Below are positions 18,102 through 21,566 of a stretch of DNA of 41,075 bases, piece by piece. This stretch comes from an uncultured Candidatus Bathyarchaeia archaeon (lineage in GTDB: Archaea; Thermoproteota; Bathyarchaeia; EX4484-135; B24-G1), in assembly GCA_964555905.1 (NCBI GenBank), contig CAZKUI010000002.1, forward strand, positions 1-41,075. Direction: 5' to 3'. The notes under the pieces were generated by a model, which was not told where the DNA came from, made no database searches, and saw only the letters and a program-made list of their open reading frames with translations. The translations under genes were made by a program, and so were the position numbers. How positions within the stretch are numbered: the stretch's first letter is position 1; every line of letters starts with the position of its first letter.

Positions 18102-21100
18102 TTAAGTTAGTCCTGCGCATCTTTTGCATATCCTTTTCTTGAATAGGAATCCTTTGACGGTCATGCAGTCTTGGCAGACTAGGAGGCCGCATTCTGGGCA
18201 CATTTCTGCGTGTTCCTTGTCCGTTATGCGGTTGCATATCGGGCATTGAACGGCGCAGCTCTGGCATATGTAGCGTCCACGTTCCCGGTGTGGGTATTTG
18301 GGTTCCTGCATGCAGTACTGGCGGCCGCAGGAGGCGCAGGTCCATGCGTCGTCTAGGCAGACCGTTCTGCCGCAGCCCGCGCAGACGGTTCTGCACTCAG
18401 CGCACACGGACCGCCCACAGAGGGGGCAAAGTTCGAGTTGAGTGGGGCATTGATCGCGGCCGCACAGGCCGCAGGGTACTAGGTGCGCCTCGTAGTCCTC
18501 CGAACAGAATGTCCCCCCACAGTCCGTGCAGTGAACGGCGTCTCTCGTGCATAGCGCATTCAGGCACGTTTGGCAGAACTGCAACTCCGAGATGGTAGGT
18601 ATGGGGGCGTGGCAGACATTACATTGCGCCAGCCACCCATCCCCCGTGAAGCCGTTCCAGTGCGCACTGAAGCGCCCGGACCTACCCTCATACGCGACCT
18701 CCACCTCTACGTCGTAGACGGGAACCCATACTAAGTCGAGGATGGATATCTCCACCTCGGATTTCCTCGGGCGGACATCATATTCTCTTATTTCCGCCTT
18801 CCGTAGCTTTTCTACGACCCTACCCAGCTTTGCTTGGTGTCTACGCTTCCTCCTCCTAATTTTATTCAGCTCCGCCCTTTTTTCGGAAATCTCCGCTTTC
18901 ACACTCCTTATCTCCTCAGAAAGTAGCTTCTTTTTCTCCCTCAGTTCCTCGATGCGACTTTCAGCGTCTACTAGCTTCCTTTCTTTCTCTAAGAGTTTCA
19001 CCTGCTGCTCTTTGAGCTTCCCTAAGTTCTTCCTCGTCTTCTCTAATTCCTTCCGAATTTTCTTTAGCGCTTTCTCAGTTTTCTTAAGCGATTTAATTTC
19101 TCTCTTGATTTCTTTGATACGCTTTTCCCTAGTTTTTATCCGCGCCTTAATGGGTGGTCTTTCCGCCCTTTTTCTCTTTTTAGCCTGCTCCTTTAGAGAT
19201 TTAACTTCTAACTCCAATTTCTTTAGTTCTATTTGGAGTTTCTCCATGCGTTTTACCTGTTTCTTAAGCCGCTGTTCCTCGGCGGTTGCTTCGTCCTCGT
19301 GCTTCTCAAGTATTCTGATCTTTCTTTTAATCTCCTTAAGTTTCTTCTTTACTTCCATCACTCGCCGTGATGTTATTTTAAGTTCTTTATTTATTGCATC
19401 TAGCCTCCTCTTCATGGTGGTGAATCTCGCTTGTGCCTCATCTAGCTCCTCGAGAAGTTGTTTCTCCATTCCTCCAAGCTTTGACTCTATCTCTTCTTCC
19501 CCAGCCTTCTCGATATATTCTATTTCTTGCCGTATCTCCTCTTTGAATTCTTCGAGCGAAGTTCCGGGGGTGGAGTATTTCTTGAGAGCTGGGTGGAGGT
19601 AGACCTTTCTTTGCGCTCTATTTATGGCGTGGTGGATTAGATTGCTCTTCAGCTTCCTTATTCCACGTGGGCTTCTTACGACCGTTGGAAGCTCCGCCAG
19701 CTTTCCCGGCTCGCGGGGCTGAACCAGCAGATTTCGACTGTCTACGCTGTCTACTTTAACCCCATACGCCTCCACGCTGTCCAAGTCTAGGGTTTCAGAT
19801 TCTAGGGGTATGAGGTTCTCCAACTTCAGAGTGTATTCAGCTTTAGGTCTCTTGCGTTTGACCTCCACCTGCACGACGCTGTGCAAGGCCGGCTGATAGC
19901 GGGGACCCCCACTAACGATGGAGAACTCGTAGGATGGGAACGCATCCCTAAGTTCTCGGATGAAGTCGTTCAGGCTTCTATACGTATCTAGGTAGTAGCT
20001 GGGGATGGCCTCCGCCACCTCAACCGTACGCTCCGCCTCTAGGGGCGCAGGCCGCGCAGCCTCCTTAGGGGCTAGCAGAGGCCTCACGACGTAACGCTGT
20101 AGACGCTCCCTCTGGCGTTCGGTGAGCCTGCGCACCTCCCCCTTGGTGATCGGCCCCCGATGGTAGACCATTAGGTGCCTCGTCCTAAAGACTATGGGTC
20201 CCTCCAACTTAACCCCGTGAAGCACGAACGTCCTCGGGGGGAGCGAGGAGATCACCTTAGCTAGGGTCCGCCTATCCAGCGTGGCGCCTTGATCCTCAAA
20301 TACGGACGTGAGCCCCTCCAAGATTCGCTCCCTATCTCTGGCGGTTTGAAGCTTCCCGATCATCCATATTCCGCAGTTGGATAGCGCCTTATAGTCTACA
20401 TCCATGGGGTTTTGTGTGGCTAGGATGCAGGAGAGGCCGTACGCCCTTCCCTGCTTCAGCAGTAGCGTTAGGGGTCGTTTAGTGGGTGGGGTGTAGGGGT
20501 GGGGCGGTAGGTAACCGTAGATTTCGTCAAAGTAGAAGATGTACCTGACGGTTTGGGCTCCGGGGTTCGTGAGCATCCAACTATACAGCTCCCACAGGAG
20601 GAGGGTGAGAAAGAATTGCCTCTCACGCTCCCCAAGATGCGCTATGTAGAATATGGAGACCCTCGGGCGGCCGCCAACCCCGAAGAAGAAGTCCATATCC
20701 ATGGGAACCCCGGTAACCCAGCTCTCGAAGTATGGAGATGCCAAAATCTTGTTTAGGTCTACGGCTAGGCGTCGGCGTTGCTTAGGCGGCGCGAACTCGT
20801 CTACGTCTACAACTCCAAGCTTAGACATCGGGGGCTCCTTAACGCTCTCTATGAGGGTTGGTAAGTCCAAATCCACGCCGCCCCTCCAAGCCTGCTCGAT
20901 GATGTTAGACAGCAGTATGTGCTCCCCACTCTTCACAGGGTCCGATTCATGCCCCACCATCTCCAGTAGGGCTGACACTACACCCCTAATCTTATCCCTC
21001 AGAACCTCCTCGTCTTCATCCCAACTTAGGCCCTGAGGAACCTTAAGTGAGTGAAGAATGGAGACAGGCGTCCCAAAACTGGCTCCGGGTGTGAATATGC

Positions 21101-21566
21101 ATATGTCAGCCGCGTCCTTCAGCATGCGAACACGCTCTTTAGGTATTCCCCACGCCTCCAGACCCCGCTCCCAGGCCTCGGCGACCTTCTCAGCGTACTC
21201 CTTCACGGTTAACCCTTGCCGCTCCGCCTCCTCCCGGCTTACCCAAGGCTCGAAGTCCTCAGCTTTAAGGTGTGGGAACGCTAAGAGCAGGTTTGTCAGG
21301 TCTCCCTTCGGGTCTACGAGGATCGCCGGAATCCCGTTGAGTATGGCCTCCTCCAAAAGCACTAAACAGGTTCCGGTCTTCCCAGAGCCCGTCATGCCGA
21401 GAATCATAGCGTGGGTGTTCAAGTCGCTCGGATTAAGGTAGACCGGTTCATCCCTCAGAACGGTCATGGTAGCCTCATCAACCCGGGCTCCCAAGTAAAA
21501 GAGGCCAGCAGAAACCCCCTCAGCGCCGCCCTCACCCATACCTAAAACCAAAATAATAGAAATCAA
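18102..21566 (-). CDS. Giant HerA/FtsK-superfamily P-loop ATPase fused to a long coiled coil and a C-terminal multi-zinc-ribbon array
   Basis: ATPase motifs are Walker A [25 protein letters not shown] and [29 protein letters not shown]. Residues about 670-928 are a K/E-rich heptad region with one RPP break. The last 175 aa hold 13 CxxC pairs. The likely true start is ATG at 21539 (MGEGG...), about 40 nt downstream of the TATA-like AAAAATTAAG at 21575-21585. Confidence 0.75.
   Translation of the reverse strand: [1154 protein letters not shown]

Follow-up and report, generated by a model that had tools for sequence, protein, structure and literature searches.

Ring motors of the HerA/FtsK superfamily are central to DNA repair, chromosome segregation, conjugation and virus packaging, as well as to several recently solved anti-phage systems, and to our knowledge those that have been studied all act together with separately encoded partners. 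HerA, in particular, works with an adjacent NurA or with defence effectors such as Sir2 and DUF4297. Both HerA (4d2i, 9x1m, 7wrw) and YjgR/DUF853 (11kk) are proteins of about 500-600 amino acids (aa) built on a P-loop core in which Walker A, D-x-K-G-D, Walker B and a QNP sensor follow one another in this order. Here we analyse a gene on the reverse strand of a 41,075-nucleotide (nt) stretch of contig CAZKUI010000002.1 (hereafter, the window), which derives from an uncultured Candidatus Bathyarchaeia archaeon. The gene encodes the same core and, unlike YjgR and HerA, continues in the same polypeptide into a middle beta-domain, a long coiled-coil hairpin and a putative zinc array, and it has no neighbour of the NurA, Sir2 or DUF4297 kind. 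A preliminary description, made from the DNA letters alone, had reported an open reading frame (ORF) of 1154 codons that combines an ATPase, a fold-back coiled coil and a cysteine array; the ORF and all three elements were found as described.

The head of the protein belongs to the YjgR/TrwB-like branch of the HerA/FtsK superfamily, and its catalytic motifs are intact. Walker A (GMTGSGKTG, residues 57-65), Walker B (FYFDE, 344-348), the QNP sensor (ATQNP, 383-387) and the arginine block (QTARDRER, 407-414) are invariant or nearly so across 59 aligned homologues, and every motif that had been read directly from the sequence, including VDPKGD and the ATQNP...QTARD block (nt 20334-20420), lies at the position first assigned to it. 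In Pfam, DUF87 is matched with 37.3 bits (cut-off 23.2; E = 4e-9) and HerA_C with 24.9 bits (cut-off 22), the latter confined to profile positions 9-64 of 502, together with TrwB_AAD_bind (20.8 bits across 45 residues). Among the PADLOC models mad8 scores best (E = 3.7e-16, residues 45-417), with several HerA models coming next, and the best sequence match in the PDB is the 'HerA like helicase YjgR' (11kk; E = 1.7e-6 over 57 residues). An AlphaFold2 model, built from the 59-sequence alignment with a mean predicted local distance difference test score (pLDDT) of 83.8, was compared at full length with solved structures by Foldseek: each of the 50 best PDB hits is of HerA type (E = 1.3e-13 to 1e-9), and the hits comprise HerA-NurA, Sir2-HerA, DUF4297-HerA, TdpAB and DndH-C (TMt 0.66 for DndH-C). 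Additionally, a YjgR-like protein is the best fold match among the viral structures of BFVD (TMt 0.59). Identity in the structural alignments to solved chains is low, about 11-18 %. Pfam, PADLOC and Foldseek hence agree on the HerA/FtsK-clade ATPase that had been proposed for the N-terminus, and the pattern of matches indicates a branch related to YjgR/DUF853 rather than a demonstrated member of it.

The N-terminal boundary of this head is informative as well. No HAS barrel was found there, either in the model or among the Pfam and PDB sequence matches, which do not reach further towards the N-terminus than the Walker A region. As Walker A is reached at residue 57 already, with just one beta-hairpin (23-44) ahead of it in the AlphaFold2 model, the barrel is considered to be lacking. 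In this regard the protein resembles YjgR, in which Walker A likewise stands near the N-terminus without a HAS barrel. An assignment to HerA proper was rejected on the same ground, together with the missing partner gene and a score of 28.3 bits against the NCBIfam model HerA_antiphage, whose cut-off is 800.

Behind the head, and joined to it by a flexible linker, the AlphaFold2 model predicts a beta-rich domain composed of two segments (residues 521-670 and 924-974), from between which an antiparallel hairpin would project. The middle segment has no Pfam match, and a profile of it gave no PDB hit. In the model the hairpin consists of a first helix of 127 residues (671-797) and a second of 124 (800-923), neither of them interrupted. 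Two heptad-like arms separated at an AERPPIKAR break had been anticipated; the helices and the break are borne out, with AERPPIKAR (residues 801-809, nt 19140-19166) adjoining the helix break at 798-799, while the lengths of 133 and 120 residues originally given for the arms are not. Hydrophobic periodicity of about 3.5 residues exceeds that of shuffled sequences in both arms (P = 0.004 and P < 0.0005) and is absent in a control segment from the ATPase. The anticipated fold-back is supported, given that both ends of the coil are strands of one beta-domain conserved throughout the family: since the coil begins and ends at strands of this beta-rich region, the arms must run antiparallel and, since that region is conserved, the fold-back geometry is a feature of the family.

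A coil of this kind invites comparison with Rad50/SMC proteins, and the preliminary description had indeed spoken of a Rad50-like arm. As an analogy of shape this is sound, the likeness being a long antiparallel coiled coil that projects from an ATPase, but it does not extend to the head, which is not an ABC ATPase, or to the apex, which has neither zinc hook nor hinge; the apical sequence (residues 796-809) contains no cysteine. In Rad50 and SMC an ABC head is split by the coil and the zinc hook or hinge occupies the apex, whereas in the window protein the head is of HerA/FtsK type, the coil is C-terminal to it and the putative zinc sites lie at the base. The models for SMC, Rad50, JetC and LmuB gave scores of generic coiled-coil similarity. 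Membership of the Rad50/SMC families was rejected: SMC reaches 34.7 bits against a cut-off of 729 and Rad50 reaches 17 against 1000, with matches that span the coiled coil alone. A general layout like the one predicted here, an antiparallel coiled-coil hairpin with a zinc-binding beta-domain against its base, appears by analogy in MSMEG_4306 (PMC5947703), which has a C-terminal zinc ribbon, and in the large serine integrases (PMC5499577), whose zinc-ribbon domain has a coiled-coil motif embedded in it. A lone zinc ribbon is present in those proteins, which lack an ATPase and are unrelated in function, and no match to them in sequence or fold was found for the window protein.

The protein had initially been regarded as an orphan, a view that has to be abandoned. 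A search of 5.8 billion proteins returned at least 7,992 matching protein clusters (of 8,000 candidates scored, 7,992 reached E <= 0.001). Among them, the top 120 score at least 556 bits, are 704-1154 aa long and all carry the ATPase, and the 59 aligned members share the middle domain, the coiled-coil hairpin and the beta-element besides. The best matches come from Chloroflexi/Anaerolineae, Methanofastidiosum, Hadarchaeum, Bathyarchaeota, WOR-3 and Eisenbacteria, to which a genome scan adds the cultured Pelolinea submarina MO-CFX1, Acidimicrobiales, Chthoniobacterales and Polyangiaceae. The window protein is a member of a very large uncharacterised family inside the HerA/FtsK superfamily.

A typical member, denoted 'DUF87 domain-containing / ATP-binding protein' (P0040 from Chloroflexi, P0048 from Methanofastidiosum and L031 from Pelolinea submarina are examples), has about 840 aa and is homologous to the window protein, at 36-46 % identity, from the ATPase through the middle domain to the beta-element (...IQPKKSDIEV...WIPYW...). 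Archaeal and bacterial members of the core family likewise share 36-46 % identity and more than 100 invariant columns. Unlike the window protein, the typical member has no cysteine array, and its hairpin is shorter, with arms of about 55 residues, roughly half as long, and a conserved GESVLGxxxGRRS...RKRR tip. The window protein shows, with respect to it, a symmetric hairpin expansion of about 120 residues in both arms, and about 180 residues of cysteine array after the beta-element; the doubled arm length and the array are the only clade-specific features. Its closest relatives are the members of its own cluster, from seven assemblies, P0240 (1154 aa, 67 % identity), and P0003 and P0004 (1037 and 1032 aa, about 50 % identity), the last two with the same array on arms half as long.

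Neither profile nor structure searches assigned the whole architecture to any characterised family, as had been supposed at the outset. In the literature, the combination of HerA, coiled coil and zinc ribbon was not found described, and searches by way of YjgR/DUF853, mad8, DUF87 and Bathyarchaeota HerA gave the same outcome; a survey paper on DndH and HerA mentions neither YjgR, DUF853 nor Mrr. For the family of about 840 aa, no described function was found in the profile libraries or the literature searched.

The cysteine array that sets this clade apart contains 31 cysteines and 13 CxxC pairs within residues 982-1150. The 13 pairs had been counted beforehand, and the count is correct; shuffles of the same 180 residues give 5.1 +/- 1.9 CxxC (P = 1.5e-4), therefore the pairing exceeds mere richness in cysteine. 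The repeat unit, of about 15 residues, reads C-x2-C-G-x3-C-x2-[H/D/E/C]. All 31 cysteines are kept in five orthologues of 38-67 % identity, and the length of the array varies by whole units. Zinc binding is suggested by this invariant cysteine pattern together with predicted beta-hairpin knuckles, and the region would be a tandem zinc-knuckle or zinc-ribbon array; the 31 cysteines and a few histidines are expected to supply about eight metal sites, near the six to seven ribbons originally proposed. For the isolated array Pfam returned nothing significant (zf-LYAR was best, E = 0.058, and DZR_2 gave E = 3.1), and no resembling solved structure or curated model was found.

To establish the distribution of the array, residues 975-1154 were compared exhaustively, by HMMER, with 1.84 billion representative proteins. 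The array is carried by 112 representative clusters, 23 of them at E <= 1e-10. Five clusters have a head of the query type; in another five, exemplified by P0121, a canonical HAS-barrel HerA head precedes the middle domain, coil and beta-element that are also present in the window protein; and about 17 have an N-terminal zinc ribbon and an Mrr_cat PD-(D/E)xK nuclease. Stand-alone short forms also exist (P0140, 186 aa), as do many carriers, 300-1200 aa long and with 20-44 CxxC, in which no head could be recognised. Among the carriers, P0123, P0127, P0129, P0147 and P0193 consist mostly of the cysteine repeat (27-44 CxxC) behind an unassigned N-terminus with a beta-hairpin and a coil, and the repeat is evidently able to grow into very long arrays. 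A further carrier, P0204 (1279 aa, query-type head and cysteine array; L043 4588-9840 and L044 1147-6399), lies 45 nt downstream of an Mrr_cat-TPR gene in a region that also holds PIN/MazE toxin-antitoxin and HNH genes, and beyond its array it has a predicted transmembrane helix followed by a Pro/Thr-rich tail.

In the Mrr-type proteins (P0132, P0139 and about 15 further clusters) the beta-element and the array are homologous to those of the window protein: hhalign aligned the profile of the former with the beta-element and array of the latter at 99.5 % (E = 2e-23), reaching the terminal G-x-L-x-K-K-x-x-C-K-x-C motif. They differ from it in having a PD-(D/E)xK nuclease head in place of the ATPase, a short helical insert and an N-terminal zinc ribbon; no member of this group has been characterised either. 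The model of an Mrr-type member (pLDDT 82.1) matched the PDB, in Foldseek, solely by way of its nuclease domain. These observations mark the cysteine array as a rare mobile module.

In the light of this architecture, we propose that the protein is a hexameric, YjgR/TrwB-like nucleic-acid translocase with a built-in tethering module formed by the basic coiled coil and the zinc repeats, a reading to which we give an even chance. Six heads would assemble into a ring that uses ATP to travel along nucleic acid or to pump it. The beta-domain, the very basic coil (arm 2 and the tip) and the zinc repeats would act as an autonomous tethering or recognition module that might hold a nucleic-acid or nucleoprotein target or might link rings to each other, and that could bring the attached enzymatic head, a translocase here and a nuclease in the Mrr fusions, to the target. 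The zinc array would stand at the base of the arm beside the motor, unlike the apical zinc hook of Rad50.

Several points weigh against this proposal. Nucleic-acid binding, hexamer formation and translocation are all properties that we infer, and the contact between the two arms was deduced from topology and periodicity, not measured. ATPases of the HerA/FtsK superfamily also move proteins, secretion-system ATPases being an example, and the substrate could be other than nucleic acid; cysteine arrays, for their part, can serve protein-protein contacts or bind other metals. No conserved neighbour was found across 19 loci with full-length relatives, so that no pathway is pointed to. Finally, the middle domains of the Mrr-type and window proteins align by hhalign at 10.7 %, a value at which homology is not demonstrable; consequently, a shared module is proven only for the beta-element and the cysteine array.

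Besides the translocase with a built-in tether, two more specific roles have to be weighed, genome maintenance and defence, which we hold to be about equally likely, and each of them rather improbable when taken singly. As a single-gene system against viruses or plasmids, the protein would sense or capture invading nucleic acid through its module, and the HerA-type motor would be the effector, by translocation or by ATP consumption. In line with this notion, the Mrr fusions present the same module with a nuclease effector, Mrr_cat being a typical effector domain of defence systems; heads are swapped between two HerA types; repeat number (9-44 CxxC) and arm length are variable; the array-bearing variant is sporadically distributed; P0204 adjoins an Mrr_cat-TPR gene near PIN/MazE and HNH genes; and the best PADLOC matches are to mad8 and to HerA models of the defence type. 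The last point loses force in that these matches are limited to generic ATPase or coiled-coil regions. In addition, the window is core chromosome with nothing that points to a defence island, and the neighbourhoods of most relatives are likewise of a housekeeping kind. Defence genes are seldom so strongly conserved between archaea and bacteria. Phages lack the family altogether and plasmids essentially so, and no effector domain, whether nuclease, NADase or another, is present in the window protein. As regards MADS, which is an eight-gene operon (bioRxiv 10.1101/2023.03.30.534895), the candidate suggested by mad8 was rejected, no other mad-like or methylase genes being present in the window.

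The genomic setting bears directly on the choice between these roles. The window is archaeal core chromosome and includes genes for class I LysRS, ABCE1, FBP aldolase/phosphatase, TIM, RadB, CDP-archaeol synthase, GcvT, NAD kinase, AglB, PAC2, eIF2alpha and GINS51. An AlaX-type editing protein is encoded directly upstream of the ATPase gene, and tRNA-Leu and glycerate kinase downstream. With these flanks and a Metallophos gene as its surroundings, the gene has no nuclease partner nearby, as had been claimed at first. Defence, secretion, conjugation or pilus genes were not found in the window, nor was a second cysteine-array or Mrr gene. Of 50,697 phage records none matches the family, and of 72,556 plasmid records one does so, weakly; an origin from phages or plasmids was rejected.

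A stand-alone chromosomal gene among core genes, conserved across phyla, would suit a housekeeping factor of chromosomes or DNA repair, that is, a long-armed ring translocase that organises, segregates or processes DNA in a job like that of FtsK or of SMC/Rad50, with the zinc array as a lineage-specific enhancement of DNA binding. We regard this as possible although doubtful. The HerA/FtsK translocase fold and the very basic arm are consistent with it, and the conserved apex of the members of about 840 aa (GESVLGxxxGRRS...RKRR) suggests a functional tip. Conversely, there is no linkage to Mre11, Rad50, NurA, Xer, ParAB, SMC or kleisin genes; the family is patchy over lineages instead of universal and counts several paralogues per genome in Myxococcales; and the link of the module to Mrr nucleases is unexpected for a pure housekeeping factor.

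A far less probable alternative, which we consider very unlikely, is a membrane-associated or protein-handling ATPase resembling type IV coupling or secretion ATPases, which would use its coil and zinc array to dock onto protein substrates or an envelope complex, and not onto nucleic acid. The weak matches to TrwB_AAD_bind, TraD and CedB/CedD point in this direction, as do the transmembrane helix and Pro/Thr-rich tail of P0204 and the non-homologous membrane-protein genes that follow in about 6 of the 19 loci. Nevertheless, the coupling-protein models are matched over no more than about 50 residues around Walker A, with scores well short of the family cut-offs; the membrane genes downstream lack conservation, and their frequency does not clearly exceed chance; and plasmids are essentially free of the family. 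In the window protein itself no transmembrane segment is present, and genes for secretion, conjugation or pili are missing from its surroundings. An identity as a type IV coupling or conjugative ATPase (TrwB, TraD, VirD4, CedB) was rejected accordingly: TraD and CedB score far below cut-off, and both a transmembrane segment and transfer genes are missing.

Returning to the tethered translocase, a broader generalisation may tentatively be put forward, which we consider rather unlikely. The beta-element, hairpin and zinc repeats could be a head-swapping targeting module that brings to one shared target either an Mrr nuclease or a ring translocase, the latter in two versions with different HerA-type heads, and these proteins could form a new class of single-polypeptide machines for nucleic-acid surveillance in archaea and Chloroflexota. 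The fusion of motor and coil will not by itself surprise the specialist; the lead consists in the size of an unstudied family, in a zinc module with no known fold and in the sharing of this module with nucleases. In this regard, the gene exposes a large, phylogenetically broad and apparently unstudied family in which motor and coiled-coil hairpin form one permanent unit, and a rarer clade that adds a zinc-repeat module common to restriction-type nucleases. The target of the module, once worked out, would give a function to thousands of 'DUF87 / ATP-binding' proteins and could reveal a new form of coupling between translocase and target, and the cultured member from Pelolinea submarina MO-CFX1 makes experiments possible.

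Table 1. Coordinates of the ATPase gene, its putative promoter element and the predicted regions of its product; nucleotide positions are those of the window.
Feature	Position (nt)	Strand	Residues	Remarks
Whole ORF	18102-21566	-	1-1154	TTG start, 1154 aa; stop codon 18102-18104
Probable real coding sequence	18102-21539	-		ATG start (M10, nt 21537-21539), 1145 aa
TATA-like box AAAAATTAAGG	21574-21584	-		8-18 nt upstream of TTG and about 35 nt ahead of the ATG (21539)
HerA/FtsK-superfamily P-loop ATPase head, YjgR/TrwB type	20091-21509	-	20-492	without HAS barrel
Walker A	21372-21398	-		head motif
DPKGD	21300-21314	-		head motif
Walker B	20514-20543	-		head motif
Sensor/Arg block	20325-20420	-		head motif
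Largely helical stretch within the head	20667-21284	-		about 200 residues
Low-confidence linker	20007-20090	-	493-520	residues 501-516 with pLDDT < 50
Family-specific middle domain (predicted)	19557-20006	-	521-670	long beta-hairpin (547-571 / 576-587) and helices
Coiled-coil arm 1 (predicted)	19176-19556	-	671-797	net charge +3
Hairpin apex (predicted)	19140-19181	-	796-809	helix break at 798-799
Coiled-coil arm 2 (predicted)	18798-19169	-	800-923	net charge +28
C-terminal beta-element (predicted)	18645-18797	-	924-974	conserved family-wide, also in Mrr-type proteins
Cysteine array	18105-18644	-	975-1154	31 Cys, 13 CxxC; terminal motif G-F-L-F-K-K-R-x-C-K-R-C

The gene has its own TATA-like box, AAAAATTAAGG, as the preliminary description had noted, although the coordinates then given, 21575-21585, are corrected here by one nucleotide (Table 1). 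Archaeal TATA boxes lie about 26 nt upstream of the transcription start. Since AAAAATTAAGG is only 8-18 nt away from the TTG, the ATG at 21537-21539 is the likelier start codon, provided that the box is the promoter. Of seven near-identical copies in the database, three are called with a length of 1145 aa, and the N-terminus of the homologue P0002 agrees with this, which makes M10 probably the true start. Regarding the integrity of the ORF, P0001 is 99 % identical to the window protein, and the architecture recurs in independent assemblies, namely in the seven members of its own cluster and in P0240, P0003 and P0004; an assembly chimera was ruled out because of this recurrence.

Partner genes were sought on a wider scale by all-versus-all clustering of the ORFs of 37 loci, which yielded only shadow ORFs for the full-length family, and a conserved partner gene was rejected. 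The Metallophos ORF two genes upstream of the ATPase gene was considered as Mre11 and discarded, for it matches neither Mre11 nor any other NCBIfam model. It encodes a calcineurin-like phosphoesterase of 315 aa (23066-24013, reverse strand), with a weak PADLOC match to PDC-S10 (E = 1.5e-7). At the three closest array-bearing loci, a gene of about 245 aa, transcribed divergently, is found directly upstream of the orthologue (L001 4022-4771, L002 5148-5879, L042 6164-6892); its products share 57-88 % identity and have no Pfam match, and it was rejected as a partner, there being no homologue in the window. The membrane-protein genes mentioned above, small or multi-pass, stand just downstream of the relatives (e.g., L003 8709-9017, L006 8636-8854 and L042 10587-11690); they were likewise rejected as partners, being mutually non-homologous and of a frequency not clearly above background.

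A different arrangement is observed in Myxococcales/Polyangiaceae (L015, L021-L029, L034), where relatives of about 470 aa consist of the ATPase only and occur several times per genome. In front of each of these genes, on the same strand, stands a conserved gene whose product of about 300-400 aa is mostly helical and has no assigned family, and the pair may represent a two-gene version of the system.

Some minor features of the window should also be recorded. The long opposite-strand ORFs inside 18290-21441 are shadow ORFs of the ATPase gene, and an ORF of 73 aa (17849-18070, reverse strand) that overlaps tRNA-Leu(TAG) (17909-17996, reverse strand) is almost certainly spurious. The gene for the class V FBP aldolase/phosphatase (6799-7897, forward strand) looks frameshifted: the ORF 6799-7767 matches profile positions 1-194 of 361 and the remainder is found in the ORF 7439-7897, with the switch of frame within 7385-7440, which may reflect a sequencing or assembly error or a pseudogene.

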